DNA of 64,000 nt from Bradymonadales bacterium (lineage in GTDB: Bacteria > Myxococcota_A > UBA9042 > PWKZ01): assembly GCA_003559575.1 (NCBI GenBank), contig PWKZ01000169.1, positions 197 through 64,196 of the forward strand, written 5' to 3'. Shown here in pieces: positions 3,729-64,000 of the stretch. The number at the start of each line of letters is the position of its first letter. The stretch's first letter is position 1. The position numbers and the translations under genes were made by a program. The notes under the pieces were generated by a model. It saw nothing but the letters and a program-made list of their open reading frames with translations. It did no database searches and was not told the origin of the DNA.

Positions 3729-3810
3729 GTCTGAGACTCCTCACTCGCTTTGAGGCGGCCCGGCGTTCCGCCGTGGCGCCACGATTTCGGCTTGGTCGAG
3801 GCCCATTTTG

Positions 3811-4983: not shown

Positions 4984-5028
4984 TTTGCCGTACATTTGAG
5001 ACTCCATAAGACAAATCTGGTGGCTCGT

Positions 5029-7681: not shown

Positions 7682-7709
7682 GTGTAGTCTCTCTGGACCG
7701 CGGGTTGCG

Positions 7710-35510: not shown

Positions 35511-35525
35511 TGCCTTGCCTCGCCC

Positions 35526-38500
35526 TTAGAAGTTGGTATCTGTCGCCACCCCGTCATGGCCATCCTCACCCGGCTCCCCGAGAGAGAACCCCCCGACGCC
35601 GCCCTGCCCGCCCGCGCCGGGCGCGAGGAAGTCGTTGGCCGCGCTCCAGACGGAGAGATCGAACACCGCCGGCGGCCACGCGAAGATGCCGTAGGCAGGC
35701 CCCCCGGCCCCGCCGGCGCCGCCGCCGCCGTGACCGCCTCGCCCGCCGTTACCACCACGCCCGCCCTGGAACGAAGGGTAGCTCGAAAACATCGGATCGC
35801 TTGGATCCAGGTGCCCGCCACCACCGCCGGCGCCGCCGAACCCGCCGACTCCACCCGCACCGCCGGTGCCGCCGAAGCCGCCATCACCGCCTGCGCCACC
35901 GACCCCACCCACGATCATGTTGTGCTCGATAATGGGCGGGCTCGTCTCGGCGCCGGAGAAGACGACGAACAGCCCAAACGCGCCGCCACCGCCTTTGCCG
36001 CCGGTGCCGGCCGAGCCGGGGCAGGCGCCGGCACCGCCGCCGCCGCCGCTTCCGCCGAGGTTGTGCCACCCGTACCCCTTGGAGTTACAGCTATTGTCCA
36101 CATAAGCGCCGGCGCCCGAGCCGCCTCCACCGCCTCCGCCGCCGAAAGTGCCGTTCGCACCGGACAGACCTCCCCCGGAGCGCCAGAGACCGGTCACGAG
36201 TCCCCCGAGCCCGCCGCTCTCGCCGCCGGTACCGTCGCCGCCCGCCGCGCCGTCGGTGCCGTTGGCGCCCTCGACCGGCCCATAGCTGTCATACCCGTCG
36301 CAGGAGAAGCGCTGGTGGTAGACATCCCAGCCGGCGGCGCCGCCGCCGGCCCCGCCCGCGGCGCCGGGCAGACCATTCTGTGACGCCACCGGCGCCACCG
36401 TGCGGTCGTTTGCAGAGTCCCAGGCCGGACAAACTCGCTCGCCGCCGGCGCCTCCCGAGGTCTCTGTGCCGTCGCAGGCGAACACCCCCGCGCTCCCGCC
36501 CGGCGAGTGATAGGCGACCGTGCACTCGTCTTGTCCCAGGCCATAGGCGGCGTGGATATCGAGGGCGTCCATGCCGCCCTCGCCCGCCACTCCATCGGCG
36601 CCATCAAAGCCGTTGGCGCCACGCAAGCCGCGACCGCCGGCGCCGGCGATGATCTGATTGTATGAGAGCTTCAGCGTCTCATCACAGCCGCGCACATAGA
36701 CGGCGTAGGAGCTAACCCCCGGGCGAGACTCCTCGTAGCCGAACACGCTGAAGCCGTCCAAAACCACGGAATCGCGAGGGCCGCCGTAAATGTCGATGGC
36801 GTTCACCGCCCCGGGCAGCTCTGGAGACGACTGGAGACCGAAAATGGCGGTCTCGAACCGTAATGGGTCGCGGCGCCTGAAGTCGGCGCTGTAGCCGCCA
36901 TAGACCTCGACTCCCGGTACCAAGACGACCGCTTCCTGATAGACCCCGGTCGCCACGTAGACATACGTCTTGCCTTCGTGTTCCGCGGCCGCGATCCCGG
37001 CCTGGATGGTCCGCAGCGGTTGCCCGAACACTCCCGCGGCATCGTCGTCGCCATGGCGCGCGACGAAGATCCCGTTGTCCTTCTCGCCGTCCATCCCATC
37101 GCAGTTCTCATCGATGCCGAGCGGATCGGGGCGATCAAACGGCGCCGGATCGCAACACTCACAGCCGGTGGTGGGATCGCCGTCGGCGTTGAAACAGTTC
37201 TCCACCTCCGCGCAGTCGATGGAGCAGACCGGCGGATCCGCCAGCGCATCGCACGCTCCGGGGCGCCCGTCGAAAGTCAGCAGCCGGCAGTTGTTGCCAC
37301 ACCCCCCGCAGTGCTCGTCGGTCACATATCGTCCGTCGACGGTGAAGGCGCCGTCGACGACTCCATCGCAGTTGTCATCCATGTAGTTGCAGACCTCGGG
37401 CGGCAGCTCACAGACCTCGGACCACCCCTCTTCCGTACACTCCTGCAAGCCATAGCAGACGCTGTCCTCGTAGTTGACTTCGCAGCCCCGCACGAGATCG
37501 GGGTTGCTCCCGTCGCAGTTGCAGGCATGGGTCACGGGGACACAGAAAGTCCCCTCGACCCCCGCGGCGCTCTCACAGACAAACCCGCTTGTGCAATCCA
37601 CGGGATCGGCGCAAGGGTTCACGCAGAAGTCGCCGTCGTCGAGAGTGACGCAGGCCGCGCCATCGAGGACACAAGTGTCGGCCGTGGTGCAGGGCTCGCA
37701 AGCCCCAAGCCCCGAAGGCACGCACCGAAACGGCGAGGCAGGGATGTAGCCCGCGGTGCACTCGGCCACCGCACACCGCGGCGCGGCATAGCTCTCGGAA
37801 TCACAGTACGCCGTAGAGTTGGGCACGGCGTCGCGACAGTCGATGCCGCAAGCGCCGCAGTGCTCCAGGTGGACGTACTGCGAATCCACCAGGAAGCCGT
37901 CGTCGGTGACGCCGTTGCACGTGTCGTCGAGCCCGTTGCATTGCTCCTCGGCCGCCGGCTCGCCCGGGACCGCGCTGCACACCAGCGCTCCGGCGGGATT
38001 GGCGGAATCGCAGACCAAGACCCCGTAGCGCGCGCAGGCCCCGATGCCCGCCACACACGGCTGCCCTTTGTCCTCCCACAGCGGCCCGTCGTCGGTGAGC
38101 CCGTTGCAACTATTGTCGCGTCCGTCGCAAACCTCGACCGAAGGCGCACCGGGCTCGACGTTGCACCGTGTCCCGCTGCCGTCCGGAGTACACTCGTAAA
38201 ACCCGAACCGCAGACACTCGCCCTGCCCTTCTGAGCATACATCGTACAGTTCGGGCCACAGCTCATCGGTGAGGCCGTTGCAGTTGTCGTCGATGTAATT
38301 GCAGCTCTCGGGCGCCGGCACCTGACCCAAGCAAATCCACCCGTCTTCACCGCCACAGCTCCACTGGCCGGGGCACTCGCCGTGCTCGTTGCTGATGGAA
38401 CACGCCTCGCTCGGCGGGACGACACCGTCGTCGGTCAACCCATTGCAATCGTCATCGCGACCATTGCACACCTCGGCCGCGGGCGTATCCGCGTCGCATG

Positions 38501-41489
38501 CACTCCAGCCGTCGGGATATGAGCAAGCCTGGGTCCCGGTACAGGTCCCGAACTCGTTACTCTCGAAACATGGCCGCACCCGACCGGCCTCGCCCTGAAG
38601 CAAGCAGGTGCAGGAACCGGTGGTCGGCAGGCAACGCCCCTCGTCACAGACGTAGGCGTCAAGGCAATCGGCCTCCGACTCGCACGTCCGGGTGCAAAAA
38701 GTCCCCTGGTCGACAGGCGTACACTCGCCCCCTTCCAGCGCGGCACACTGCGCGTTCTCGACACACGGCTGACAGTCGATGGTGTCGGCGCCCGGGACAC
38801 AAACTCTGTCGTTCGCCTCCGGCACCTCGTAGCCTGTAATGCATTCAACCGGCTTGCACAGCGCCGCGCCGTCCTCGACCACGCACGCCGTCTCGACGGC
38901 GTACATGACGGCGTCATCGCAGCCGTAGCCACAAAGCCCGCAGTGCTCGCGAGTGTGATAGACGCCGTTCTCATCACGAAACGGTCCGTCAACGACACCG
39001 TCGCAGTTGTCATCCTGATAGTTACAAATCTCGGCGCTCGGCTCTTGCGCGTTGCAGACGAAGCCGTCGTGACCCTCGCAAACCCAGTCGCCGTGGCAGA
39101 TCCCGTGCTCATTCTCCTTGGCGCAAGGCTCGGCGGGCGGAGCCAGCGGTCCGTCCGGCGAGTAGTCGATCCGGCCGTCGCAGTTGTTGTCGACTCCATC
39201 GCAGACCTCGGGGGCCGGCACCCGCGCGTCGCATTCGGACCAACCGCCCTCACCGCAGACCTGCTCGCCAACACAAAAGCCATATTCGTTTCGCACGGAG
39301 CAAAGTCGTCGGTTGCCGAGATCTTCTTCGTGCATGCAGCTACACGCCCCGGTGACGGGGACGCACTGGGGCTCTTGACCGGCCACTTCGAGACAATCGA
39401 ACCCCTCGGGGCAATCACCCTCCGGCGTGCCGTAGGCGTTGTCGGGCCCACAGCTTCGCCCACAAAAGCGCCCGTCGCCGAGCTCGAGACAGACGTCGCC
39501 GTCCCCGATGCAATTGAGATCCGAGATGCACGGCTCGCACAGCGATGGCGGCACAAGCTCGCAGGTGAAGGGCGACACCCGAACGTACCCGGGTTCGCAC
39601 CGGTCGACTACGCAGGTCGGCTGCTCCCTCGTGCCATCGCACCGTTCAGTAGCGTTCGCGATCGTGCCGAGGCAAGAGTAGCCGCAGACTCCGCAGTGCT
39701 CGACGTGGACGTATGCCCCCGAATCGGGATCACGAAACGGTCCGTCGACCGTCCCATCGCAGTTGTCGTCGCGATAGTTGCACTCCTCCGCCCCGGCTTG
39801 CTGAACGTCACAGACCCACTCGGCGTCAACGCAACGCCACTCCCCGACGCAGCGCGCCGGCTCGCCTGTTGGATCGTCGGGGTCGTGATAGGTGGTCTCG
39901 CACGGTTCCTCGGGCGGCACGGGGTTGAAGTCGATCAACCCGTCACAGTTGTTATCGGTGCCGTCACAGCTCTCCGGCTCCGGGGTCCGCGCCGTACATT
40001 CCAGCCAACCTTCGAGCGCAGAGCAGGCCTGTGTCCCGAAGCAACGCCCGTACTCGTTTTCATTCATACAGGCGCGCTCCACCCCGTCGTTCTCAGGAGT
40101 GCAGCCGCAATGCCCGTTCTCCGGGACGCACTGGAACACACCGGCCTCGACCTCATCGCAGGTATAGTATTCGGGGCAATCGTCACCGTGGAACGAGTCG
40201 GGGCCGCAGTCGCGACCGCAAAATGTGCCGAGACCGATCTCGAGGCAGCGATCACCCGGGACCGCGCAGTTCACGTCATGGAGACACGGAAGGCACAGCG
40301 ACGACGTGACGGGTAGGCAGAGATGATCGCCGGCGCGATAGAAGTCTTCGTCGCACTCTAGCACCACACATTGGGCCTGGCCGTCGGCCACGCGACAGCC
40401 TCCCAGACCGCCCGCGAACATCTCGCGACAGTCATTGTCGCAGGCCCCGCAGTGCTCGTCGTGAACATACAGCCCGCTGTCGGGATCGCGGAAGCCCTCA
40501 TCGGTCAACCCGTTACAGTTGTCATCGCGATAATTGCAGATCTCAGGCTGAGGCTCGCGAGAGTCCACGCATACCCAGCCCTCAGTTCCGCGACACACAA
40601 AGCGCCCGACACAGGTTCCGTGCTCATTGGCCCACTCGCACGGCTCGTCGGGCGGGACCACATCGTTGTCCACCAGCCCGTCGCAGTTATTGTCCTGCCC
40701 GTCACACACTTCTTCCGTGGGCGGTTGGGCCGAACATTCGCTCCACCCCTCCTGGCCGTCGCAAGTTTGAAAACCATAGCAGACCTCACCCGCTTCGTTG
40801 GCCGCCGCGCAGGGGCGCTGCATCCCATCCCACCGGGGCGAGCAGTCGCAGCTTCCCGTAGGCGGGACGCACTGCGGCGACTCCTCGGTCCCATCGAGGT
40901 TGCTTATGTCCTCACAGATCCAGCCGTCCGGGCAGGTCCGGTCATAGGCGCAGGGCAGAGTGCAGGCCAGCTCCTCGTCGAGTGGCAGGCAATAGCCGCC
41001 GGCGCAGTCGAGATCGACGTTACACGGCGCGCAGAGGCGCTCGGAGGCCGGGTGGCAGATGAAGACATAGTCGGGGCCGGTCCCGCGCACGCTGCGGCAC
41101 TCCCACCCCTCGGGACACCCTTCGGTGCAAGGGTGGGTGCAGACCGTGCCGCCGTCAGGGCCGGCGATGCACCACCCCGATTCGCAGTCGTCATTGTCCG
41201 TGCAGGGATCCATGAACCCCGCCGGCGCGAACCCGTCCGGCGGGAGAGCGTCAATCGTCTCCGGGGGGAGTGGCCCGTCGGTGTCGACCGTCTCGACCAA
41301 CGCGACATCTCCCGGATCCACCAAAGTATCGCGCGAAATATCTTCCACGATGTCGAGCCCCGCCGGCCGCCCGTCCTCGCCGGCACACCCCGCACCGGCG
41401 ACCAACCCGCCGATCAGGAGACAAAGCGCGATCCCGCGCCGCCGGGTCTGTGATAATCGCCGGGTGAAAAGAAGGCGTGCGTAAGCCAT
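35526..41489 (-). CDS. giant Cys-rich repeat lipoprotein 2 (paralog of lipoprotein 1)
   Basis: Same architecture as lipoprotein 1 and colinear over its full length. Ends ...TDTNF. Start chosen at MAYARLL with AAGGAG RBS 6 nt upstream, lipobox LVAGAGC. 15-bp gap to the downstream paralog. Confidence 0.8.
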   Translation of the reverse strand: MAYARLLFTRRLSQTRRRGIALCLLIGGLVAGAGCAGEDGRPAGLDIVEDISRDTLVDPGDVALVETVDTDGPLPPETIDALPPDGFAPAGFMDPCTDNDDCESGWCIAGPDGGTVCTHPCTEGCPEGWECRSVRGTGPDYVFICHPASERLCAPCNVDLDCAGGYCLPLDEELACTLPCAYDRTCPDGWICEDISNLDGTEESPQCVPPTGSCDCSPRWDGMQRPCAAANEAGEVCYGFQTCDGQEGWSECSAQPPTEEVCDGQDNNCDGLVDNDVVPPDEPCEWANEHGTCVGRFVCRGTEGWVCVDSREPQPEICNYRDDNCNGLTDEGFRDPDSGLYVHDEHCGACDNDCREMFAGGLGGCRVADGQAQCVVLECDEDFYRAGDHLCLPVTSSLCLPCLHDVNCAVPGDRCLEIGLGTFCGRDCGPDSFHGDDCPEYYTCDEVEAGVFQCVPENGHCGCTPENDGVERACMNENEYGRCFGTQACSALEGWLECTARTPEPESCDGTDNNCDGLIDFNPVPPEEPCETTYHDPDDPTGEPARCVGEWRCVDAEWVCDVQQAGAEECNYRDDNCDGTVDGPFRDPDSGAYVHVEHCGVCGYSCLGTIANATERCDGTREQPTCVVDRCEPGYVRVSPFTCELVPPSLCEPCISDLNCIGDGDVCLELGDGRFCGRSCGPDNAYGTPEGDCPEGFDCLEVAGQEPQCVPVTGACSCMHEEDLGNRRLCSVRNEYGFCVGEQVCGEGGWSECDARVPAPEVCDGVDNNCDGRIDYSPDGPLAPPAEPCAKENEHGICHGDWVCEGHDGFVCNAQEPSAEICNYQDDNCDGVVDGPFRDENGVYHTREHCGLCGYGCDDAVMYAVETACVVEDGAALCKPVECITGYEVPEANDRVCVPGADTIDCQPCVENAQCAALEGGECTPVDQGTFCTRTCESEADCLDAYVCDEGRCLPTTGSCTCLLQGEAGRVRPCFESNEFGTCTGTQACSYPDGWSACDADTPAAEVCNGRDDDCNGLTDDGVVPPSEACSISNEHGECPGQWSCGGEDGWICLGQVPAPESCNYIDDNCNGLTDELWPELYDVCSEGQGECLRFGFYECTPDGSGTRCNVEPGAPSVEVCDGRDNSCNGLTDDGPLWEDKGQPCVAGIGACARYGVLVCDSANPAGALVCSAVPGEPAAEEQCNGLDDTCNGVTDDGFLVDSQYVHLEHCGACGIDCRDAVPNSTAYCDSESYAAPRCAVAECTAGYIPASPFRCVPSGLGACEPCTTADTCVLDGAACVTLDDGDFCVNPCADPVDCTSGFVCESAAGVEGTFCVPVTHACNCDGSNPDLVRGCEVNYEDSVCYGLQECTEEGWSEVCELPPEVCNYMDDNCDGVVDGAFTVDGRYVTDEHCGGCGNNCRLLTFDGRPGACDALADPPVCSIDCAEVENCFNADGDPTTGCECCDPAPFDRPDPLGIDENCDGMDGEKDNGIFVARHGDDDAAGVFGQPLRTIQAGIAAAEHEGKTYVYVATGVYQEAVVLVPGVEVYGGYSADFRRRDPLRFETAIFGLQSSPELPGAVNAIDIYGGPRDSVVLDGFSVFGYEESRPGVSSYAVYVRGCDETLKLSYNQIIAGAGGRGLRGANGFDGADGVAGEGGMDALDIHAAYGLGQDECTVAYHSPGGSAGVFACDGTETSGGAGGERVCPAWDSANDRTVAPVASQNGLPGAAGGAGGGAAGWDVYHQRFSCDGYDSYGPVEGANGTDGAAGGDGTGGESGGLGGLVTGLWRSGGGLSGANGTFGGGGGGGGSGAGAYVDNSCNSKGYGWHNLGGSGGGGGAGACPGSAGTGGKGGGGAFGLFVVFSGAETSPPIIEHNMIVGGVGGAGGDGGFGGTGGAGGVGGFGGAGGGGGHLDPSDPMFSSYPSFQGGRGGNGGRGGHGGGGAGGAGGPAYGIFAWPPAVFDLSVWSAANDFLAPGAGGQGGVGGFSLGEPGEDGHDGVATDTNF

Positions 41490-41559
41490 GGGAGACTCCT
41501 TACGGCCGATTTGCGTTGGCGGAGAGCACGGGAGCAGACCGAGCGACAAGCAGCCCTGA

Positions 41560-41757: not shown

Positions 41758-42393
41758 ATGTTGAACAGGCTCGGGCGCACATTTGTTTCGCTTTTGACTC
41801 TGCAAATAGTGGCGCCACGGTGGCGGCTGCCCTGTTTTGCGGCGCTCGGGGCTTTCGTCGGTCTCAGCTTGGTGGTCGCCCACATTTCGCGGGCCGCCTC
41901 CTACTTGACCGACTCCCCCGAGGCCTGCGTCAACTGTCACGTCATGACCAACGCTTATCTGACATGGCAGAGGAGCTCGCACGCCACGTTGACCACCTGC
42001 GGCGACTGCCACGTCCCCCAAGATAACATCCTGAGCCACTACCTCTACAAAGCCCGCGACGGCGCCTGGCACACGACTGCCTTCACCTTGCGCTTGGAGC
42101 CGCAAGTGCTGCGACTCTCCAAGAAGGCCATCCCGGTTATCGAGGCCAACTGCCGCCGCTGTCACGACCACGAGCTTCATCGCGTCTCCCTCGCGGCCCC
42201 CGATGAGCAGGGTCAACGATGCTGGGATTGCCACCGCGCCGTGCCGCACGGGAGTGTGCGGTCGCTCTCCACCTCGCCCGCGCTTATGCGCCCAGCGCTC
42301 CCCCCGTTGACGGGGCCGCTCAAGGGTCAAGGACAAACGATCGGCGGCCGGCCCGTCCGGCCCAGCGGTGGCGAACAAGGAGGACCACAATGA
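41758..42393 (+). CDS. nrfH: cytochrome c nitrite reductase small subunit, tetraheme NapC/NirT family
   Basis: N-terminal membrane anchor and four CXXCH motifs (CVNCH, CGDCH, CRRCH, CWDCH). Stop overlaps the nrfA start (ATGA). Confidence 0.85.
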   Translation: MLNRLGRTFVSLLTLQIVAPRWRLPCFAALGAFVGLSLVVAHISRAASYLTDSPEACVNCHVMTNAYLTWQRSSHATLTTCGDCHVPQDNILSHYLYKARDGAWHTTAFTLRLEPQVLRLSKKAIPVIEANCRRCHDHELHRVSLAAPDEQGQRCWDCHRAVPHGSVRSLSTSPALMRPALPPLTGPLKGQGQTIGGRPVRPSGGEQGGPQ

Positions 42394-43877
42394 GCCCGAC
42401 CCCCTCGACCGCGAAGCGCTCTCATCGCCCCTGGCAGGGCTTTGTAGTATTCGGGACGGCGATGCTGGCTGTCTTCCTGATGGGGCTTTTTTTCGCCTCC
42501 ATCATGGAGCGTCGGCGTGAAGCGCACCACATGGAGGTGCTCCAGCCGATTGCGGCGCTCGAATCCGACCCGGCCAAGTGGCGCGCCAACTATCCTCGCC
42601 AATACGACAGCTATCTTCGCACCAGAGAGACCGAGGCCGAGACCAAATACGGCGGCCCGGCTTTTCGCGACTACTTGGAGGAGACCCCCGCCAATGTGAT
42701 CCTTTTTGCCGGGATTGCGTTCTCGAGAGACTACAACCAGGCGCGCGGGCATTACTGGGCGCGCCGGGATACCCTCGACACCGGACGTCTGGCCCCCGAC
42801 AATCCCGGCACCTGCTGGACTTGCAAGAGTTCCGACGTCCCGCGGGTGATGGCCGAGCTGGGGGCAGGCCTCGTCGACGATCCCGAGAACGCGAGCTTTC
42901 GCGAGCGGCTGATGGCCGGCGCGGCGCCTTTCTATGCCACCAACTTTCATGAATTGACGCCCGAGATGAACCACACCATCGGCTGCCTGAACTGCCACGA
43001 TCCCGAGACGATGAGCCTCCGAATCACCCGCCCGGCGCTCGTCGAGGCGTTCGAGCGCCGCGAAATGGACATCGACGAGGTCTCTCATCAGGAGATGCGC
43101 TCCCTCGTTTGCGCCCAATGCCACGTCGAGTACTATTTCCGGGGCGAAAACGACCACCTCACCTTGCCGTGGGATCAGGGGACCACCGTCGAGGACATGG
43201 AGCGACACTTCGACGAGTACGAGTTCGCCGATTACACGCACGCCATCAGCGGCGCGCCGATAATCAAGATCCAGCACCCCGACTACGAACTATATCAGCG
43301 GGGCATCCACGCCTACCGCAGCGTCTCCTGCGCCGACTGCCACATGCCCTACAAGACGGAGGGCGGGGTCAAATACAGCGATCACCACCTCCAGAGCCCC
43401 CTCTTGAGCATCGACAACTCCTGCGCGGTCTGCCACCGCTGGAGCGAGACCGAGATCCGGGTTAGGGTGGAGTCGATTCAAGACAAGATCAAAGAGGGGC
43501 GCGAGCGCGCAGAGCGGGCGCTCGCGTTGGCCCACTTCGACGTGGCGGCGGCGGCCCAGGCGGGCGCCGACGACGCGGAGCTTGCGCGCGCGCGAGCGTT
43601 GTTACGCGGCTCGCAGGTCCGGTGGGACTTCGTCGCGGCCGCCAAGGGGATGGGGTTCCACGCCCCCCAAGAGGCCCAGCGGATTTTGACCGCCGCGGTG
43701 GAGTTGGCCCAGGAGGCACGCCTGGAGGCCGGCCGACTGCTCGCCGGCTACGGCTACACGGCGCCCGTCGCCTACCCCGCGTTTGAAACCAAGGAGCAGG
43801 CCCAAGCCCTCGTCCAACGCTTCACCAACGGCGATCCACCCAGTCTGTTGGTTGGCGGAACGGGCGCCCACCCCTGA
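42390..43877 (+). CDS. nrfA: cytochrome c552 nitrite reductase catalytic subunit (pentaheme, ammonia-forming)
   Basis: Diagnostic CXXCK active-site heme motif (CWTCKS) plus four CXXCH (CLNCH, CAQCH, CADCH, CAVCH). N-terminal signal anchor. AGGAGG RBS. Confidence 0.9.
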   Translation: MSPTPSTAKRSHRPWQGFVVFGTAMLAVFLMGLFFASIMERRREAHHMEVLQPIAALESDPAKWRANYPRQYDSYLRTRETEAETKYGGPAFRDYLEETPANVILFAGIAFSRDYNQARGHYWARRDTLDTGRLAPDNPGTCWTCKSSDVPRVMAELGAGLVDDPENASFRERLMAGAAPFYATNFHELTPEMNHTIGCLNCHDPETMSLRITRPALVEAFERREMDIDEVSHQEMRSLVCAQCHVEYYFRGENDHLTLPWDQGTTVEDMERHFDEYEFADYTHAISGAPIIKIQHPDYELYQRGIHAYRSVSCADCHMPYKTEGGVKYSDHHLQSPLLSIDNSCAVCHRWSETEIRVRVESIQDKIKEGRERAERALALAHFDVAAAAQAGADDAELARARALLRGSQVRWDFVAAAKGMGFHAPQEAQRILTAAVELAQEARLEAGRLLAGYGYTAPVAYPAFETKEQAQALVQRFTNGDPPSLLVGGTGAHP

Positions 43878-43915
43878 CTCGCCGGAGAAGATCCCGCATC
43901 CGTAGGTCTCCGTGA

Positions 43916-43941
43916 CCGTTGGACGCGGACGCGTCCAACGG
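43916..43941. terminator. perfect 12-bp palindromic hairpin between convergent nrfA and the rubredoxin-reductase gene (bidirectional terminator candidate)
   Basis: CCGTTGGACGCG GA CGCGTCCAACGG, flanked by GTGACCG direct repeats. No T-tract. Confidence 0.55.
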
Positions 43942-44054
43942 CAGTGACCGCGGGACGCCGGAACAGGGTCAGCCCCGGCTGCGAATCTGCCGGGGGTCGG
44001 CCAGCGCAAGATCGAGGCCTGGAGCGCCGACACCCCCGTGTGGGCCGTAATGTC

Positions 44055-45422
44055 CTAACGGCTGAGGATCTCCATCAAGAGCTGCTGTTCCTTCTCCTGA
44101 TCGAGATCCGACGGAAGATCCACCTCGTGCGCGCTCTCCACAGCCGCGCTCAGCGCTGTCGAGCCCTCTAGGGTACCGAGCAAGATCCCACCAACCACCC
44201 GGCCCTCGTGAATCACGAGCTTGCGATACAATCCATTCTCGCGCTCGTGGGAGCAGAGCGCGCGCGAACCCTCGGGGGGAGCGGCCGCCCGGCCGGCCGA
44301 GAAGACCGGGATCCCGAGCACCTTCAAAAACGTCGCCGCGATCTGAGTCTCGAGGGTCAACGCGGCTCCGCCCGCGTTGGCCCCGGCGACGTCACCCATC
44401 GACATCGCGGTGGGCCATATGCCATAGAGGGCACCCCGATGCTCGGCCACATCACCGGCGGCGAAGATGTTTCGATCGCTCGTCCGCATGCCGTCGTCAA
44501 CCATGACACCAAGGTTGGTCTCGAGACCGGCCGCCTTGGCGAGCCCAAGATTGGGCCGGATCCCGGCCGCGACAACCACGAGATCCCCGCCGACCACGGC
44601 ACCACCGGCCAGATTGACCTCAAGCGGCCCCTCACCGCCTGAGTCGCCGAACCCCTCGACTCCAATCCCGGTGCGCACCTCGATCCCCTTGCGCGCAACC
44701 TCGGTCTCCAGTAGCGCGGCGGCGGCGGAGTCGAGTTGACGCGGCAGCAAGCGCGGCGCCATCTCCAGGACCGTCACACGGCACCCGGCGCGGGCCTTGA
44801 GCGCGTAGGCGGACTCGAGGCCCAACAGCCCGCCCCCCAAGACCACGACATGGGACAGCTCGGGCGCGAGGCTTATCAGGTGCTCGGCGTCGTCGAGGGT
44901 GCGCAGCACCACCACCTTCGGCTGGTCGATGCCGGGGATCGGGGGGCGGCCGGCCGCCGCGCCCGTGGTAATGACGAGCCGGTCATAAGGGAGCTCGCGC
45001 CCGGAGTCAGTGACGACGACTCGCTCCCGACGATCAATCCGGGCCACGCGCTGCCCCAGGACCAAATCAATGTCCTGTTCGGCGTAACGCGCCTCATCGA
45101 AGAGCGAGAGGTCATCGCGACTGATCTCGCCTGCCACATAGGGTGTCAGGCTCATCCTGCTGTAAAACGGGTGCGGCTCGTCAGTCAGAACCTTTATTTG
45201 GGACTTCCGCGTGGTGCGACGAAGCGCCAGCGCTGCGTGATGGCCTGCGACGCCATTGCCGATCACCACCACGGCACTCGGGGCTTCACCCGCCTGCACC
45301 GACAGATCCTCGTCCGGCAGGCGCTCAAAAAACTCGGGCCCGACCTCGCACACGGGACATTTGGCGGGCGGCTCGTCGCCCCGATGAACATAAGCACAGA
45401 TCCGACATCTCCAACGTTTCAC
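44055..45422 (-). CDS. rubredoxin-domain-fused FAD/NAD(P)H pyridine nucleotide-disulfide oxidoreductase (NorW / rubredoxin reductase-like)
   Basis: N-terminal rubredoxin fold CRICAY...CPVCEV. Two Rossmann GxGxxG motifs (VVVIGNGVAGHHAA, VVVLGGGLLGLESA). C-terminal dimerisation domain. Confidence 0.7.
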   Translation of the reverse strand: MKRWRCRICAYVHRGDEPPAKCPVCEVGPEFFERLPDEDLSVQAGEAPSAVVVIGNGVAGHHAALALRRTTRKSQIKVLTDEPHPFYSRMSLTPYVAGEISRDDLSLFDEARYAEQDIDLVLGQRVARIDRRERVVVTDSGRELPYDRLVITTGAAAGRPPIPGIDQPKVVVLRTLDDAEHLISLAPELSHVVVLGGGLLGLESAYALKARAGCRVTVLEMAPRLLPRQLDSAAAALLETEVARKGIEVRTGIGVEGFGDSGGEGPLEVNLAGGAVVGGDLVVVAAGIRPNLGLAKAAGLETNLGVMVDDGMRTSDRNIFAAGDVAEHRGALYGIWPTAMSMGDVAGANAGGAALTLETQIAATFLKVLGIPVFSAGRAAAPPEGSRALCSHERENGLYRKLVIHEGRVVGGILLGTLEGSTALSAAVESAHEVDLPSDLDQEKEQQLLMEILSR

Positions 45423-56623: not shown

Positions 56624-56716
56624 CAGTCTTCTCCGTCTCGTAGGGCCGCCGTTCAAAGCGCCTCTCCAACAAACCAGAAAGTGTTCGGGGTGAACACACC
56701 AGGGTAGGCGCGGGCC

Positions 56717-56743
56717 AAAAAAAAGTGGGCCTGAGAAGCCCAC
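56717..56743 (-). terminator. rho-independent terminator ending the radical SAM operon (minus strand)
   Basis: Minus strand reads GTGGGC TTCTCAG GCCCAC followed by TTTTTTTT. Lies 100 bp after the stop of the B12-radical SAM gene. Confidence 0.7.
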
Positions 56744-56844
56744 CCAAAAGATGCCGAAACCGACATCGCGCGCAACCTAGCACATCAAAATCACGAAAGC
56801 AAACCTGGCGCCGGGCTAAACTCATCTCACAATCCCAGGCAAAC

Positions 56845-58644
56845 TCATTGCCGCGGCCGCTGGGACCTCTTCCTCTCGACAAGTCTCTCCCCTCGACGCA
56901 GCGCCGCTTGCACCAGCGCCAGCAGGCGCCCTAGATCCGCGGGCGGCACCTCGATGCCCGGCAACGCCTGCCCCGTCAGCTCGTAGCGCTCGGTCACCCG
57001 CGCGTGGAGGCGACTTCGGGCCTCTCGCCTCGTGAGAGTAACACGCGCCTCACCACCATCTCGGTGGCTGAAGCGGGCGATCACGCCTTGCCCCTTGTCG
57101 CGCATTAGCCCAATCTTCTCGAGGGTCCAGCCCTCGATGGTCAAACCGATACTCCACGGGCGAAGTAGCCTCGCGACCCGCGCCGGCGCGAGCCACGGAT
57201 CGAGGCCATCCCGGGCACCCTCCATGAGCACTATCGCCTCGGCTGCCTTGAGCCGCTCGGGGTCCAAAGCGATCCGCCGCAACAGGTACGCTTTGGCGCG
57301 CGCCAGCGCGGAGGCGGGCCAGTCGCGGCTGCTTTGCAGGTAGGGGATCCCCCAGGGGTCGAATTGGAGCTCAAGCTCGGCGCGCCGGCGCCAGAGGAGC
57401 GAGCCCCGGTAGACTTGCAACAACGAGACGAGCACGGTCCCGACCACCGGCCGCTCCCCTGGTTCGGCGACGGTCCATTCTAGCAGTGTATCGAGGGTCT
57501 GCCGGAACCCCAACTCCGTGTCACCCGGCAGGCCCAGCACGATGCTCGCCACCGGTGGCCTGGTGCGTCGCCCGAGCGCCCACAGGCGCTCCTTCAATTC
57601 CTCCTGGTCGACCGGCGCCCGCTCCACCTCGACCATGGCGCGGGGCTCAAAGGTCTCGACCCCCAACAAGACCATCTGCGTGGGCACCCGCGCCAGTAGA
57701 TCCAGCTGCTCCTCATCCAGACAGTCATGGCGGAGATTGTAGGTGAAAAGCAGAGTTCGGCCGGGATCGACCTCGCGGAGAACCTCCACGAACGCGCGCA
57801 GAGCCTCCGTATCGTAATTGATCGCTGAATCGTTGAGGGTCGCGTGGCGGTGTCCGGCGCGGAGGGCCCACTCCAGATCACCGGCAATCCGGGCGGCCGA
57901 GAAATGCCGGAGCTGTTTATCGGCGTTCCAGGTGCAGTAGCCGCAGCCGTGCAAACAGCCGCGTGACAACTCCAACATCACCCCGTTCGGGGGCGGCGTG
58001 AGCACCCCCTGCTGGTAGGGGGAGGGGACCTCATCCAGCCGCTCAATGGCGACCGGCGGCGCCCCCCTCTCGATGCCGGAGCGAGCGCGGTAATAGATCC
58101 CCGGCACCTCGGCCAAAGCCCCCTCCGCGCGGGCGCTCAAGCGCGCCCGCAGCAACTCCCGAAAAGGGATCTCGCCTTCGCCGACAATGGCCACATCGGC
58201 CTCGGGCATCTCCCGCAACAGCCCTTCGGGATCCCCTTCGGTTCCGCGCCCCCCGAGCACCATCAAGGTGCCCGGCAGCTGCTCCCGCAAGGAGGACAGC
58301 GCGCGGCGCACCCCCGCCACGTTCCAGCAGTAGAGGGAAAAGCCGAGGATGTCCGGGCGCGCCGAGACGATGCGCGCGCGATCGCTATCGGAAAACCACA
58401 ACTCCTCGCGCGAGTCCTCGAGCTGCAACGGCTCGGCGACCACTTCGAGTTCGATCTCGTAATTATTCGCCAACTCAGGGAAGGACTCGGCGTAGGTTTT
58501 GAGGTAGGCGTTGGCCAGGCTATAGGGTTCGGGCGCCAGGGTGTCCACGAACCCGCCCTGGCTGCCGAACGGGCCGTCCATTCCCTCGGGGGTGATACTG
58601 CGGAAGCCCCCCACCAGGAGCACCCGCTGTCGCGCCCCGGTCAT
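56845..58644 (-). CDS. B12-binding-domain radical SAM protein
   Basis: N-terminal cobalamin-binding-like Rossmann region, then CxxxCxxC (SRGCLHGCGYCTWN). 599 aa. 4-bp overlap with the upstream plsC-like gene. Confidence 0.75.
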   Translation of the reverse strand: MTGARQRVLLVGGFRSITPEGMDGPFGSQGGFVDTLAPEPYSLANAYLKTYAESFPELANNYEIELEVVAEPLQLEDSREELWFSDSDRARIVSARPDILGFSLYCWNVAGVRRALSSLREQLPGTLMVLGGRGTEGDPEGLLREMPEADVAIVGEGEIPFRELLRARLSARAEGALAEVPGIYYRARSGIERGAPPVAIERLDEVPSPYQQGVLTPPPNGVMLELSRGCLHGCGYCTWNADKQLRHFSAARIAGDLEWALRAGHRHATLNDSAINYDTEALRAFVEVLREVDPGRTLLFTYNLRHDCLDEEQLDLLARVPTQMVLLGVETFEPRAMVEVERAPVDQEELKERLWALGRRTRPPVASIVLGLPGDTELGFRQTLDTLLEWTVAEPGERPVVGTVLVSLLQVYRGSLLWRRRAELELQFDPWGIPYLQSSRDWPASALARAKAYLLRRIALDPERLKAAEAIVLMEGARDGLDPWLAPARVARLLRPWSIGLTIEGWTLEKIGLMRDKGQGVIARFSHRDGGEARVTLTRREARSRLHARVTERYELTGQALPGIEVPPADLGRLLALVQAALRRGERLVERKRSQRPRQ

Positions 58645-59399
58645 CCCTCCCCTCCATGGGATACTCTCCCCTCGAGCGGGGTGGCGATGGCGGCACGCGT
58701 GCGAGCGATGAGCTCCGCTAGATCGCCCTCTCCCAGCCCGGTGGTCTCGATCGGAGGATGAACAAACGCATCCACCTTGCCCGGGAAAAGCTTCAGAGAT
58801 CGACCCGGCAACAGATCCCTCGTCCCCTTGATGGTCACCGGCAAGATCGGCAACCCAAGGTCGAGGGCGAAGCGAAACGCACCTTTTTTGAATGGCAGCA
58901 ACGCTCCGTCAGGAGAACGAGTGCCTTCCGGGAAGAAAACTATCGCAGTGCCGTCGCGGATTTTTTCGCGGGCTCTCTCGAGAGTGGCCAGAGCTTGTTC
59001 ACGATTCGACCGGTCGATATAGACGTGCCCGAGCTTACTGCATGCGAACCCGAACACAGGAATTTTGCGCAGCTCGGCCTTCATCACCCAGCGCAGGTCG
59101 AGCCCACTCCAGCCAATCAAGACGAAGATGTCCAGATGGCTCTGATGGTTGCTGACAACGACGTATGACTGCCCCGGCTTCATGTTCCCCTGATCGAAGA
59201 AGCGCACACGCATGGGGATTGCCGCCGCGTTGAGGCGTGACCAGATACGCCCGCAGATACCCGCCACGCGCGGGCCGGCGATCCAGGAAAGCACGATGCT
59301 CGTGATACCCAGCCCGAAAGTCGAGAGCCCCAGCAGTGGGAAGTAGACGACCCATTTGTATGGTTGGTAAAGGTTGAGCAGTGTTCGATTCTCTCGCAC
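58641..59399 (-). CDS. plsC: 1-acyl-sn-glycerol-3-phosphate acyltransferase-like (PlsC family)
   Basis: HXXXXD motif (VVSNHQSHLD) and FPEGTRS motif. N-terminal TM helix. Start set at GTG 59399 with GGAGGAAGG RBS. ORF track 58641..59552 overlaps the upstream gene and is probably too long. Confidence 0.75.
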   Translation of the reverse strand: MRENRTLLNLYQPYKWVVYFPLLGLSTFGLGITSIVLSWIAGPRVAGICGRIWSRLNAAAIPMRVRFFDQGNMKPGQSYVVVSNHQSHLDIFVLIGWSGLDLRWVMKAELRKIPVFGFACSKLGHVYIDRSNREQALATLERAREKIRDGTAIVFFPEGTRSPDGALLPFKKGAFRFALDLGLPILPVTIKGTRDLLPGRSLKLFPGKVDAFVHPPIETTGLGEGDLAELIARTRAAIATPLEGRVSHGGEG

Positions 59400-59439
59400 T
59401 TCCTTCCTCCCGGAGCCAGTGAAGCCCCCCCGCGCGTGG

Positions 59440-61818
59440 CTACAAGAGACCGCGACTTGCCAACATACCGTAGCAGGGATCATATTCGGGGCGGAAGAAC
59501 CCGCCACAGAGAATGTACTCGGTGCATTCGCGGCACACCGGGTGGCGCACACGGTGCGGCCTCGCGCGCTGGAGCGCCCAGGGTGGGAGCGGAGTCAACA
59601 CCCCGGGCAGATCGGGGAGCATGCACAACGGGACGCCCTGGACCGAGATCTCCGTCTGCAACTTTCGGCCGAGCAGCACCGCGCGCAACATCGCGTCACG
59701 CGCGTCTTCGAACCGCGCCACCGCCTCTCTTGCAAACGCGCGACTGTCCGGCTGCGGGTAAACGAGACGGATCGAGCGAATGCCGAGGCCCCGCGCAAAA
59801 CGCACGGTATCGACCAACAGGCTGAGATTACGGATCAGAACCGGGATGCGGGCTTCCAAATCGGTTATGCCGCTCTTGACCGCCTCGGCGACTCCGGCCA
59901 ACGTGCGCTCATGTGCCCCTTCGAGCGCGGCGATTTCGTCGTGAACCGGGGCCTGCGCCGCAAAGAGATCGATCACCAGGCGATCCACCAGTTGCTCATC
60001 GCGTCCCCCGAGAATGCGTCGCGCGACGGCGGGGCTAACGAGGCCGTGGGCATTGGTCAGGAGCGTCGTGCGCGAGAATCCCATCTCACGTACGCTCGCC
60101 AGTAGCCGGGGCAACAACGGGCTCAACGTGGGCTCGCCGCCCCCGATGAACACCTCGCGCGCCCCAAGAAACCGTGCTTGCTCCAGTTGCGCTGAGAGTT
60201 CAGCGAACCGCGGCGCCTCACCACCGCGGTCAAAGCCCTCGCGCGCCGCCTGCCGGCGCATGCCATCATCGCCCTCGGTCGGGTCCGGGAGACAATGACA
60301 CGCGAGGCAGCGCGCCGTGCACCGGCGCTCGATATCGAGAAAGACCATCGCTTGTGTGGCGGCGTGGAGGTGCTGCGCGTTGCGTTTCATCCGCGACACG
60401 TCGTCCGGATTGAACTCGGGGGTCTCGATGATACTTTGGATCTCCAGAGATTCGCCGGGGACTTCGTGGGGGGGAGTGGTGAAGTAGCCACTCTCCTCAC
60501 ACTCGCGAAACAGCGCGGTTCCCGGAAACGGGATGGCGTGTTGTAGCAATGGCCACGCACCGTATAGTTCGAACAGCCGCGTCGCAAACTCGAGCGTCTT
60601 GTTGATGCGCGCCTTCGTCTCGCCCGGCACGCCCATGATGTAGTGGACCTGGAGCGGCACCTGCTCCTCTTGACAGATTCGGGCTAGCTCGATCACTGTC
60701 CCGAGCTTCAGCCGCTTGTTTATCACCTTGCGCAGCAAATCAGGATCGCCGGACTCGGCCGAGACCGTTATCTTGGTGTTGCCGGCGGCCTTGATGGCGC
60801 GCACCGCGTCGCGATCGAGTTGATCGGCGCGAAAACCGTTGACCGCATCCCACGGCAAGCGCGCGCGCGCCATCCAGGCGACCAATTGACGAAAGCGCCC
60901 GGCGTTGACGTTGATGTTGTCGTCCAGGAACAGAAAACGATCGACCTCGTAGCGGTCCTTCAAGTCAGTGAGGACATTTTTCAAGTAATCCACCGAGTGG
61001 GCGCGCCAAGGGAGGTCGAGCACCTGGTTGGTGCAGAAATTACAGCGGTGAGGGCAGCCACGACTGGTCATGAGTGGAATCTGCCGCTCAACCACGTGGT
61101 ACTCATGCACCAAGCCGGCGCGGATCGCGTCGGCCTGGACCGAGAAGTAGTTGTCCATGTTGATGAGGTGGAACGCGGGCGGCGGCAAAGAGTCGATATT
61201 TTTTATGATTTCAGGCGGACTCGGATCGTAGGCGATGGCCTCGCCGCCGGGTCGGTGAGCGACCCGAGGAAGCCCTTCGACTCCCAGACCGGCCGCCAAC
61301 CGCGCGAGCAGCCGCGGGATGGTCGGCTCACCCTCCCCCACCACGATCCAGTCGGCCGAGGGCAGTGACGCCAACACCCGCCGCGGATCGTATGGAAAAT
61401 AGTTCATCCCACAGATGTGCATGTCGGCGAGCCCCAACGCTGCCTTGGGAAATGCCTCACGCAGCAGGGTGACCGTGGCCGGCACGAGGGTCTCCTGGAT
61501 CCGGTTGAGTTCGGAGAACATCGTCACGGCAACGCAGATGGCCAGCTCGTCACCGCCCGCGCCCAAGCCCATCCCGGCAACATTCTCGCCCACGGCGGCA
61601 ACCACACGCTCGGCCGGCACACCGACCTGCCGCATGCCGCTCTCCTCCGCCCTCATCTCGAGCTCGGAGCATAACGTGAAGGAGTCCACCACCCGAACCT
61701 GGTGGCCCAACTTCTCGAGCCAAGCGGCGTTTGCGAGCAAGCCGAGGGTGCTGAACATCGGATAGTGCGCGAAGATGAGCGGGAGGTGAATGGGGGGATT
61801 TACCAGGATGACGTTCAC
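59440..61818 (-). CDS. fusion protein: B12-binding radical SAM domain plus second radical SAM domain
   Basis: First Cys triad TSRGCPHRCNFC near residue 265. Second triad RRCTARCLAC near residue 497, followed by GGGEPTL and LLTNAHGL core motifs. 792 aa. Confidence 0.7.
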   Translation of the reverse strand: MNVILVNPPIHLPLIFAHYPMFSTLGLLANAAWLEKLGHQVRVVDSFTLCSELEMRAEESGMRQVGVPAERVVAAVGENVAGMGLGAGGDELAICVAVTMFSELNRIQETLVPATVTLLREAFPKAALGLADMHICGMNYFPYDPRRVLASLPSADWIVVGEGEPTIPRLLARLAAGLGVEGLPRVAHRPGGEAIAYDPSPPEIIKNIDSLPPPAFHLINMDNYFSVQADAIRAGLVHEYHVVERQIPLMTSRGCPHRCNFCTNQVLDLPWRAHSVDYLKNVLTDLKDRYEVDRFLFLDDNINVNAGRFRQLVAWMARARLPWDAVNGFRADQLDRDAVRAIKAAGNTKITVSAESGDPDLLRKVINKRLKLGTVIELARICQEEQVPLQVHYIMGVPGETKARINKTLEFATRLFELYGAWPLLQHAIPFPGTALFRECEESGYFTTPPHEVPGESLEIQSIIETPEFNPDDVSRMKRNAQHLHAATQAMVFLDIERRCTARCLACHCLPDPTEGDDGMRRQAAREGFDRGGEAPRFAELSAQLEQARFLGAREVFIGGGEPTLSPLLPRLLASVREMGFSRTTLLTNAHGLVSPAVARRILGGRDEQLVDRLVIDLFAAQAPVHDEIAALEGAHERTLAGVAEAVKSGITDLEARIPVLIRNLSLLVDTVRFARGLGIRSIRLVYPQPDSRAFAREAVARFEDARDAMLRAVLLGRKLQTEISVQGVPLCMLPDLPGVLTPLPPWALQRARPHRVRHPVCRECTEYILCGGFFRPEYDPCYGMLASRGLL

Positions 61819-63683
61819 CCTCTCTTCCTCCCCCGTGAGTCACGGCTCGCTTTTATCAACCATAGGTTAGATGTCGCGGGAGTGACGGGCCGGTGGTGGC
61901 GAACCTTGAACGGAAACCGCCCCATGAGATCCAACACCTGCTCACTCCGCCAGTTACGATAGTGCTCGTGCCCGAATGGCGCGTTCTCGTCGGCGAAGGC
62001 GACCTGCGCCGAGGTCCGTAGCATGGCAAACGGCGGCGAATCGCACAAATAGAGCGTCCCTCCGGAGCGTAACAATCGGGCGAACTGCGCGAAGGCCCGC
62101 TCGAGATCAAAGAAATGGTTGAATGAACGAAAAGCGAGGATGATGTCGAAGCTCTCGTCGGCGGCCTCGAACTCCTCGATCGTGCCCTCGTGCAACGTAC
62201 CGCCCACACCGGCGCCACGGAATCGCGCCAGCGCTCCGGCGTCGGGATCGAGTCCATGGTAATCAATTCGCGCTTCTCGGATGAGCGCCGCCAGCTCTTC
62301 GCGGTAGGGCTGCTCGCCGCAGCCCACATCGAGCACTCGCCCTCGGGCCCGCGAGACCTCCCTCCGCAGCCAGGTCTCCTCGGCAGTGAACGGAGGGTCG
62401 GGGTCCACCCGAACCGCCGTTGGGCACCGTTCTCTGTCAGGGCACGCGTGACACTCGGGGTGAAGACGGGCTCGACGCACCGCGGTCACGAAATCGTCTA
62501 GGGCGGCCCCCGCGCTCAGATCGAAATAGACCTGCTCCAGATCGTCCTTGACGACTCCAATCTCCCGATCCGTAAAGTCGTTGGCCGGGCAATGGTAGAG
62601 ATCGACCTCGCCATCACGGGCGAGCAGCAGGCGGCGGCAGAGAGGTGCCCCGCCGAGGTCGAGGCGCGTGGCCGAGCAACGACCGGCTCTCAACCGAAAG
62701 TTTTCGAGAGTGCGGTCGAACTCGTAGTTGAAGGAATTGGCGCGCACCGCCCTGGTCGGCCTGAGAGCGCGTTCGCCCTCGTGCTGAAGGAGCGGGGCCG
62801 GCGCGCCGGGGCAGGTGGCTTCGTGGACGCAGTCCTGGCAAGGGATTGGATGACTTCGCGCCGGATAATCGGGGTTATGCAACAGCCAGGCGTCCACTCG
62901 CTCGTCGGCAAACGCCGTTCCGGCGAGCGGTAGCCCATAGGCGGGAACACCGTAGCGCAGCCGCTCATCGCGAAGACTGGCATGCTCCTCGAGGAGGCAA
63001 GGCGCGAAACCCTCCCAGGCAACAGGCAATACGACGCCGGAGAGTGCCGCTGCGAGCCGGTCGGAGATCTCCGCCGCCGGTACCCAATCTTCGGCTTTGA
63101 CCCCCGTCAAAGGGGCGACAAAGCGGAGCCCAACGGCAGGAGAGCCCCCGAAATCGGCCAGAATCTCGCTGAGCGCCACTAGCTCCCCCAGGTTGGTGCC
63201 TGTCGGGCAGCACGCCACCTCGACAAACAGCTCTCGCGACCCCTCGCGAAGCAGACCGGCCAACCCGGTGGTGACCTGCTCAAAAGCCCCGGCGACTCCC
63301 ACCACCCGGTCATGGGTCGCTGCGACAGCGCCGTGGAGTCCCACTTGTAAATACCGCAACTCGGGCACGAGTAGGCGGCGGCGCACCCGTGGGTAGAAGA
63401 GCGCGCGGCCGTTGGTGACTACTCCGGCCGCGATCCCGACCTCCCTGCAGGCGCCGAGAAGTCGTGGCAAGTGGCGGTTCAGGGTCGGCTCGCCACCGAC
63501 GAAAACCGCCATCCCCGCCGCCGCGCCGCGCGCCAAAACCAGATCGCGCTCCACCTCGTGAAAATCGCGCTCGGGAGTGTTGAGCGAGTGAGTCGCCGGG
63601 TTGCGTGCGTTGTTTCCGCCCCCGATGCGAAGGACCGCCGCGGAATTCAAAATGCTGCTAAGCGCTCCGTGGCTCGCTATCAT
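61815..63683 (-). CDS. multidomain protein: radical-SAM-like domain lacking the Cys triad, Cys-motif middle region, C-terminal class I SAM methyltransferase
   Basis: GGEPTL and VTNGRAL radical SAM core motifs, but the position aligned to the paralog CTARCLAC reads GGGNNARNP. Middle CQDCVHEATCP and HPECHACPDRERCP. C-terminal MTase motif I VLDVGCGEQ. Start chosen at ATG 63683 with GAGGG RBS. ORF track runs to 63830 into the repeat. Confidence 0.6.
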   Translation of the reverse strand: MIASHGALSSILNSAAVLRIGGGNNARNPATHSLNTPERDFHEVERDLVLARGAAAGMAVFVGGEPTLNRHLPRLLGACREVGIAAGVVTNGRALFYPRVRRRLLVPELRYLQVGLHGAVAATHDRVVGVAGAFEQVTTGLAGLLREGSRELFVEVACCPTGTNLGELVALSEILADFGGSPAVGLRFVAPLTGVKAEDWVPAAEISDRLAAALSGVVLPVAWEGFAPCLLEEHASLRDERLRYGVPAYGLPLAGTAFADERVDAWLLHNPDYPARSHPIPCQDCVHEATCPGAPAPLLQHEGERALRPTRAVRANSFNYEFDRTLENFRLRAGRCSATRLDLGGAPLCRRLLLARDGEVDLYHCPANDFTDREIGVVKDDLEQVYFDLSAGAALDDFVTAVRRARLHPECHACPDRERCPTAVRVDPDPPFTAEETWLRREVSRARGRVLDVGCGEQPYREELAALIREARIDYHGLDPDAGALARFRGAGVGGTLHEGTIEEFEAADESFDIILAFRSFNHFFDLERAFAQFARLLRSGGTLYLCDSPPFAMLRTSAQVAFADENAPFGHEHYRNWRSEQVLDLMGRFPFKVRHHRPVTPATSNLWLIKASRDSRGRKRG

Positions 63684-63713
63684 TGGGCCCTCAACGATCC
63701 TGCACGAAACGAA

Positions 63714-63731
63714 TCCCCTCCCGAGGGAGGG
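63714..63731 (-). promoter_or_regulatory. perfect 8-bp GC hairpin in the 5-prime leader of the radical SAM operon
   Basis: CCCCTCCC GA GGGAGGGG, about 30 nt upstream of the proposed start codon on the minus strand. Confidence 0.3.
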
Positions 63732-63784
63732 GGGACGACGCTCAGAGTTAGCGACCGAGGATTGCCTGTCAAGGCCGGGGCTAC

Positions 63785-64000
63785 CCCCAATCCCCCGCCT
63801 CCACCGGCATTCGGCTGCCGATTCAGGCACATCTGCGGCGTCAGCTTCACCGATTTGGTGCTCCAGATAGCTCGGCTATCCCTCCGCCCGAAATCGGCTC
63901 GCCTCCTTGCAGCTACACCCGCTTCGACACCCTCGGTCCACGGACGCGGTGGATGATTGAGGCCAACCCTAATTCCCCACCTGCACCGGCATTCGCGCGT
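63785..64000. repeat. tandem, diverged copies of the intergenic repeat family (period ~181 bp, truncated by window end)
   Basis: ATTCAGGCACATCTGCGGCGTCAGCTTCACCGATTTGGTGCTC is a mutated version of the copy A core. CCAATCCCCCGCCTCCACCGGCATTCGG at 63785 recurs as CCTAATTCCCCACCTGCACCGGCATTCGCG at 63968. Includes the 33-bp block shared with 41609. Confidence 0.5.

Follow-up and report, generated by a model that had tools for sequence, protein, structure and literature searches.

Gene clusters that combine nitrogenase-like proteins with several radical S-adenosylmethionine (SAM) enzymes were reported as the Group VI NFL/multi-radical-SAM locus type by Meheust et al. 2020 (bioRxiv 10.1101/765248 / ISME J), who described homologues of this new NifH group in Gracilibacteria and in fourteen Myxococcales genomes (10.1101/765248). 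Their prediction for its function, made by analogy only, was tetrapyrrole reduction (10.1101/765248), and a 2026 review (PMC13474568) describes Group VI as having no characterised member and a completely unknown function. Radical-SAM enzymes that act on lipids form another group of described systems; those treated in a 2026 review of the subject include Tes, Mss, Gms, GrsA/B, Gmm, Cds, HpnH/J/P/R, Jaw5 and the ladderane candidates. The subject of the present analysis is a four-gene operon, P1-P2-P3-P4 with P3 being a plsC gene, located on a 64,000-nucleotide stretch of DNA from a Bradymonadales bacterium (GCA_003559575.1, contig PWKZ01000169.1), hereafter the window. The genes P1, P2 and P4 constitute a conserved module at the core of a rare multi-radical-SAM neighbourhood; all known examples come from uncultured Polyangia-type Myxococcota and groundwater Elusimicrobia.

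About 26 distinct loci were collected through a genome scan (12-sequence alignment, one genome per species) and contig look-ups, and were annotated against the window proteins and an Elusimicrobia reference locus. Full-length P2 homologues are scarce, with only about 80 in 5.8 billion protein clusters. None has a functional name, and the small number with a named source derive from metagenome-assembled genomes (MAGs) of Myxococcota/'Deltaproteobacteria' or Elusimicrobia. Approximately 47 P4 orthologues were found on contigs shared with P2 homologues. P1 and P2 are neighbours in nearly every one of the ~26 loci, at least 10 of which also have a P4 orthologue no more than a few kb away. The usual gene order is a ~300-aa seven-bladed YVTN beta-propeller followed by P1 and P2, usually accompanied by several extra B12 radical-SAM genes. 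The P4 orthologue is convergent and just downstream in loci L006, L012, L014/L028, L025, L027 and L033, and a longer, double-core version of it is co-directional in L004 and L024.

Nitrogenase-like genes accompany several of these loci. A co-directional run of overlapping genes in L004/L005 encodes the propeller, P1, P2, a P4-like protein, one NifH-like and two NifD/K-like proteins and three radical-SAM proteins. The L004 homologues are 35% (P1), 40% (P2) and 38.5% (P4, over the N-terminal 432 residues of a 765-aa homologue) identical to their window counterparts. Nitrogenase-like genes also occur within 10 kb of the module in five Myxococcota loci (L008, L009, L010, L012 and L015), and in L009, L012 and L015 the module homologues stand beside them as they do in L004. 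NifH-like genes are found in L004, L009 and L012, and NifD/K-like genes in L004, L008, L009, L010, L012 and L015. Across the loci, the recurrent partners that are not radical-SAM proteins are the propeller, the nitrogenase-like proteins, a ~185-aa protein and a sigma-54 activator, with no lipid or tetrapyrrole gene among them.

The ~185-aa protein has no Pfam match and always adjoins another radical-SAM gene (L012 8003-9993, L015 485-2724, L020 345-2836 and L021 5794-7808), its neighbour in L021 combining Fer4_12 with Radical_SAM; it is a further member of the multi-radical-SAM system. Variation on the module is also seen in L028 (1-764 and 19674-20504), where a 1041-aa fusion of a B12 radical-SAM protein with an SDR/KR domain is encoded and a GDPD phosphodiesterase lies ~7 kb downstream of P2, and in protein P0049, a 1318-aa P2-like protein with an additional B12/radical-SAM part.

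P2 contains two radical-SAM cores, both complete. The cysteines C255/C259/C262 of core 1 and C500/C504/C507 of core 2 are invariant in the alignments, the match to the Pfam Radical_SAM family reaches 107 bits over two stretches, and an AlphaFold model of residues 482-792 (predicted local distance difference test, pLDDT, 93.5) adopts the canonical radical-SAM fold. Both cores combine a CxxxCxxC motif with that fold, as canonical radical-SAM enzymes do. Core 1 finds its nearest solved relative in AprD4 (2.4e-15 with a single sequence, 1.1e-19 with a profile), and a C-terminal extension of P2 carries four conserved cysteines (C732, C762, C765 and C771).

P1 is built differently. A degenerate radical-SAM-like N-domain is followed by its own Cys-rich C-terminal extension (C229, C282, C285 and C291), a middle region (C336, C411, C414 and C420) and a class I SAM methyltransferase. 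The N-domain scores 18.7 bits against Pfam Radical_SAM, under the cut-off of 29.5. An alignment of homologues places NNARNPAT at the position of the CxxxCxxC motif in the window protein, so that all three cluster cysteines have been lost, and the same loss extends throughout the Polyangia clade, where every homologue reads NNARNPAT or similar. Elusimicrobia-type homologues have CSLNCVLC, CNLRCSFC, CNNNCVFC and similar at this position. GGEPT and the eight downstream cysteines are still conserved in P1 homologues. Lacking CxxxCxxC, P1 therefore does not qualify as a functional canonical radical-SAM enzyme, and it probably represents a radical-SAM domain decayed into a non-catalytic partner. Its methyltransferase domain is intact (VLDVGCG; Methyltransf_11, 56.7 bits in Pfam), in agreement with the class I methyltransferase that a preliminary description of the window had listed.

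P4 passes the Pfam thresholds for both of its domains, B12-binding (PF02310, 46.1 bits against a cut-off of 32.1) and Radical_SAM (PF04055, 36.4 bits against 29.5), and has the cluster motif CLHGCGYC. These features identify it as a genuine class B cobalamin-binding radical-SAM enzyme, predicted to be methyltransferase-like. Its best matches in the PDB are TokK (2.5e-22) and CysS (5.7e-15). TokK and CysS are C-methylases of unactivated carbons on pantetheine-linked substrates, and the title of the CysS entry records a structure solved with a pantetheine-type ligand. The preliminary description had counted three radical-SAM proteins, two of them B12-binding. With the cluster cysteines of P1 lost and P2 double-cored, the count becomes three intact cores in two proteins (P2 and P4) plus one decayed core in P1; B12 binding is secure for P4 alone, the N-terminal match of P2 stopping at 16.4 bits, below the threshold of 32.1.

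P3 is, as judged from domain and motif matches, a canonical PlsC-type lysophospholipid acyltransferase. It scores 114.7 bits against PF01553 (cut-off 23) and 113.6 bits against TIGR00530 (cut-off 102.95), its HX4D motif is present as NHQSHLD together with FPEGTR, and a transmembrane helix lies at the N-terminus. The PlsC assignment of the preliminary description thus stands, with both curated thresholds passed and the catalytic motifs intact. Homologues exceed 5000 at E <= 1e-20; the 118 listed matches other than the two locus copies have identities of 50-59%, and Syntrophales, Spirochaetota, Thermodesulfobacteriota and Desulfobacterales are among the named sources. The possibility that P3 belongs to a divergent, dedicated subfamily of PlsC was considered and rejected on account of this abundance and of the 50-59% identity of the listed homologues, which are of the stand-alone type.

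L023 is the locus most closely related to that of the window, with P2 66% and PlsC 68% identical. There the order (1008-8065) is DUF362, a phosphoribosyltransferase, a KstD-like flavoprotein, P1, P2, PlsC, a CAP-domain protein and P4, with all gene junctions from P1 through P4 overlapping and with flanks unlike those of the window. The flavoprotein, directly upstream of P1, scores 352 bits against 3-ketosteroid-delta-1-dehydrogenase, which is sub-threshold. L023 also has bacterial-microcompartment shell genes 7 kb upstream. The P2 tree groups the window with L023 as sister taxa, and the next clade, L024 and L026, is without PlsC, a topology that fits a single capture of plsC. In both PlsC-bearing lineages the propeller is not beside the module, nitrogenase-like genes are absent from the vicinity, P4 is co-directional and plsC lies between P2 and P4. 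The P4 orthologue of L024 (12493-18212, minus strand) is followed by an EXPERA/EBP membrane protein, an SDR with mycolate reductase and 7beta-hydroxysteroid dehydrogenase as best matches, an MJ1255-type glycosyltransferase and a 536-aa protein, a neighbourhood suggestive of a lipid- or sterol-like context.

Comparison with curated families places P1, P2 and P4 outside all of them, as none reaches an NCBIfam or Pfam cut-off for a specific family. In NCBIfam, P4 scores 31.7 of 650 for HpnR and 40.6 of 360 for the ladderane family TIGR04072; P2 scores 118 of 575 for Sden_1168, 93.8 of 577.6 for HpnJ, 84.7 of 360 for TIGR04072 and 74.2 of 481 for BchE. The PhpK and RiPP (ribosomally synthesized and post-translationally modified peptide) TIGR03975 cut-offs are likewise unreached. 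The comparison with HpnP- and BchE-type enzymes that had been put forward earlier is not sustained: scores for HpnP/R, HpnJ and BchE, and for the B12 family of the ladderane type, stay far under the respective cut-offs. A likeness to Tes had also been suggested. Profile matches to Tes/GDGT-MAS (7tol) do occur, at 1.6e-14 for P2 core 2 and 5e-11 for the P1 N-domain, but their scores equal those for BlsE, SkfB, PqqE and MoaA and the matches cover the common core alone, so that the likeness is generic to the radical-SAM fold and carries no specific Tes affinity.

For the sub-lineage of the window, a lipid is our tentative choice of substrate. It is favoured because plsC is translationally coupled within the operon in two genomes with different flanks, and because lipid-type neighbours appear in the same four-member subclade (the KstD-like flavoprotein of L023; the EXPERA/EBP protein, SDR and glycosyltransferase of L024). 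Under this reading, P4 would methylate an unactivated carbon by cobalamin-dependent radical chemistry, a role proposed because TokK and CysS are its nearest solved relatives. P2 would contribute two further radical steps, one per SAM-cleaving core, core 1 being B12-like or AprD4-like and core 2 twitch/SPASM-like with an auxiliary cluster. P1, having lost radical SAM cleavage, may combine conventional SAM methyltransferase activity with the role of a scaffold or binding partner. The substrate in the window lineage would most likely be a thioester-carried or membrane acyl chain, and PlsC would then esterify the modified chain onto a lysophospholipid. A much bolder extension, that the entire family, Group VI-associated clusters included, acts on a lipid, as the PlsC link would then reveal, and that the product is no tetrapyrrole cofactor, appears improbable.

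Several observations weigh against a lipid substrate. PlsC belongs to the module in 2 of the ~26 loci, namely the window (with the duplicate contigs L001-L003) and L023, and the ~24 loci without it carry the propeller and more B12 radical-SAM genes instead. The two genomes that share the arrangement are related, and shared ancestry rather than selection may account for it; plsC could be a co-transcribed passenger. In two other genomes that were sampled, plsC homologues are stand-alone genes in unrelated surroundings. Neither the operon nor the nearby window contains an ACP (acyl carrier protein) gene, Fab, PlsX/Y or other fatty-acid genes, and lipid genes in general are absent from the surroundings of the operon. 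In L004 the module shares an operon with NifH- and NifD/K-like genes, and the literature leans towards a tetrapyrrole-type cofactor for clusters of this sort. Tes is matched no better than viperin, NifB, SkfB or BlsE, and the radical-SAM-plus-PlsC loci that the preliminary description invoked for membrane-spanning lipids find no counterpart in the Mss paper, the text of which contains neither 'PlsC' nor 'acyltransferase'. Finally, all module loci come from MAGs. Of the lipid-tail modification system proposed at the outset, the embedding of PlsC and the order kept in L023 hold up; the ~24 module loci without PlsC count against it, and adjacency is its sole basis.

The main alternative, which we consider unlikely, is that P1, P2 and P4 tailor a tetrapyrrole-type cofactor, as in nitrogenase-like clusters, with plsC as a housekeeping passenger. 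The single overlapping run of L004/L005, the five Myxococcota loci with nitrogenase-like genes within 10 kb, and the tetrapyrrole reduction proposed in the literature for Group VI NFL all point this way, as do the match of the propeller to the Cytochrom_D1 domain family, weak matches of P1 and P2 domains to AhbC, AhbD, NirJ and BchE, and the ordinary, widespread type of the PlsC. However, the tetrapyrrole idea is itself an analogy for a group in which the 2026 review recognises no characterised member, and the matches to AhbD, NirJ and BchE are far under cut-off and no better than those to RiPP, sugar and MoaA enzymes. Throughout its 64 kb the window lacks genes for nitrogenase-like proteins, the propeller and tetrapyrrole synthesis, as well as radical-SAM genes of the 501/450/453 type, and the placement of plsC is kept in L023 among other flanks. 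It is less probable still that the system tailors a lipid of polycyclic or isoprenoid kind, resembling a sterol, hopanoid or terpenoid. In that case P4 would act as a C-methylase in the manner of HpnP/HpnR, with PlsC adding an acyl group to a product that is hydroxylated or glycosylated. This would accommodate the KstD-like flavoprotein just upstream of P1 in L023 and the genes downstream of the L024 P4 orthologue on the same strand, and hopanoid methylases are indeed B12 radical-SAM enzymes, as passages of the lipid radical-SAM review state. Yet each of these neighbour matches comes from one locus only and is either sub-threshold or generic, the scores of P4 for HpnR and of P2 for HpnJ fall short by hundreds of bits, and no cyclase, squalene or isoprenoid gene is seen in the window.

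Tail-to-tail C-C coupling as in Tes/Mss, yielding membrane-spanning lipids of the diabolic-acid type, is very unlikely. The 7tol profile matches and the four-Cys extension of P2, which is available for an auxiliary cluster, speak for it; the architecture, a fused B12-like radical-SAM part plus a second core, is unlike that of Tes/Mss, the Mss paper makes no PlsC linkage, and at least 6 of the ~26 module loci have nitrogenase-like genes rather than lipid genes. We give the least credence to the maturation of a RiPP or a protein-derived cofactor, in which B12 radical-SAM C-methylases, a SPASM/twitch enzyme and a methyltransferase would act on a peptide. Sub-threshold matches to TIGR03975, ApyD, HxsC and sactipeptide maturases hint at such chemistry, and beta-propellers partner cross-linked peptide cofactors in QHNDH and MADH (weak matches). 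The operon nevertheless leaves no space for a precursor gene, no small open reading frame (ORF) is conserved across 24 loci, and the PqqD/RRE and SPASM Pfam domains are absent from P1, P2 and P4. A RiPP pathway is unlikely for want of such an ORF and of an RRE/PqqD domain, as had already been supposed before these loci were compared, although a precursor may be encoded elsewhere. What probability the readings listed here leave over belongs to something else.

Should a lipid prove to be the substrate, the module would build or reshape an unusual membrane lipid anaerobically, with chains that are methylated, cyclised or coupled and, where an Nfl reductase is present, with C=C bonds saturated by it. 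The P1-P2-P4 module is in any case a rare enzyme set confined to uncultured bacteria. Its PlsC variant is a compact, expressible construct of four genes that could open the family to biochemistry for the first time. Expression could tell a lipid from a cofactor, and a lipid outcome would bear on the orphan branched or methylated bacterial lipids that are used as biomarkers.

The features of the operon are collected in the table below. P1, P2, PlsC and P4 are one operon. As first described, the genes are four overlapping or tightly spaced co-directional ORFs on the minus strand, and 4-nt overlaps join P1 to P2 and PlsC to P4. P1 probably starts at the ATG at 63683, as supported by gene callers and the homologue alignment, and not at the GTG at 63830. 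The most likely start of PlsC is the GTG at 59399, 41 nt past the P2 stop and preceded by a GGAGGAAGGAA Shine-Dalgarno sequence.

Features of the P1-P2-PlsC-P4 operon; coordinates refer to the window, and the lengths of P1 and PlsC are gene-caller predictions.
Feature	Coordinates	Strand	Remarks
P1	61815-63683	-	622 aa; maximal ORF 61815-63830
P2	59440-61818	-	792 aa
P3 (PlsC)	58641-59399	-	252 aa; maximal ORF 58641-59552
P4	56845-58644	-	599 aa
Tandem intrinsic-terminator-like hairpins	56715-56767	-	Hairpins at 56767-56750 and 56745-56723
Upstream non-coding leader or promoter region	63684-64000	-	TTGACA at ~63772-63767; 35-nt direct repeat, two copies

The tandem hairpins set the operon apart from rimP, the first gene of the rimP-nusA-ylxR-infB series downstream of them. 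The first hairpin is followed by four T and the second by T8 (56717-56775), and the 91-nt terminator region folds with z = -2.2. The hairpin-plus-T8 terminator of the preliminary description is thus right in its T8 and wrong in its single hairpin, a tandem pair being found. Upstream of P1, the copies of the direct repeat (63779-63813 and 63961-63995) are 83% identical and 182 nt apart, and two matches to their shared core arose in 0/100 shuffles. This pair could represent regulator-binding sites or a small repeat element. An Rfam scan of the region, including the sequence upstream of P1, returned no riboswitch and no other family. A signal of horizontal transfer was considered and rejected, the operon's GC content of 0.63-0.65 being like that of the rest of the window.

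Elsewhere in the window are found the housekeeping genes nusA-infB-rbfA-truB-pnp, NrfA and two giant MopE-repeat proteins. The latter are encoded by adjacent minus-strand ORFs of ~2000 aa each (29586-41549) with MopE-type putative metal-binding repeats (PF11617). The cytochrome c552 gene (NrfA-type nitrite reductase, 490 bits) adjoins a fusion of a rubredoxin domain with a pyridine-nucleotide oxidoreductase (42219-45422). This locus suggests an anaerobic or microaerobic lifestyle, in keeping with oxygen-sensitive radical-SAM chemistry.

Among described systems, AprD4, like P2, matches the B12-binding domain family weakly, but P2 has an entire second radical-SAM core and lies outside the AprD4 family (65 bits against a 500-bit cut-off). 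P4 shares its B12-binding Rossmann domain and radical-SAM core with TokK, CysS and KedN5, from which its C-terminal region and gene context differ; against the 700-bit cut-off of the KedN5 family it scores 91.9 bits. P3 differs from ordinary PlsC proteins in lying inside a radical-SAM operon, a context seen only in the window and in L023. Tes and Mss have an unlike domain architecture, and nothing in the operon points to tail-to-tail coupling. For the P1-P2-P4 domain set as a whole, the headings and searched passages of the lipid radical-SAM review contain no match.

The Group VI NFL clusters are the described systems that the wider module resembles in its organisation, with the term 'Group VI' applied to the Nif-like genes here for likeness of locus type and taxa, not phylogenetic placement. 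P1, P2 and P4 homologues are co-operonic with Nif-like genes in an Elusimicrobia MAG (L004), five Myxococcota module loci lie near such genes, the taxa match (groundwater Elusimicrobia and Myxococcales), and several radical-SAM genes with B12 domains are present. The window, in contrast, is without nitrogenase-like genes or a propeller in 64 kb and has a PlsC that is found in none of the NFL clusters, and the P1-P2-P4 module is undefined in published work. The claim that the arrangement is undescribed is upheld to the extent that the operon is uncharacterised and that P1, P2 and P4 fall within no curated family. The component families and the multi-radical-SAM/Nfl neighbourhood are already noted in the literature; what appear to be undescribed are the propeller-P1-P2-P4 module, the two-core P2, the decayed P1 and the Nfl-less variant that bears PlsC.

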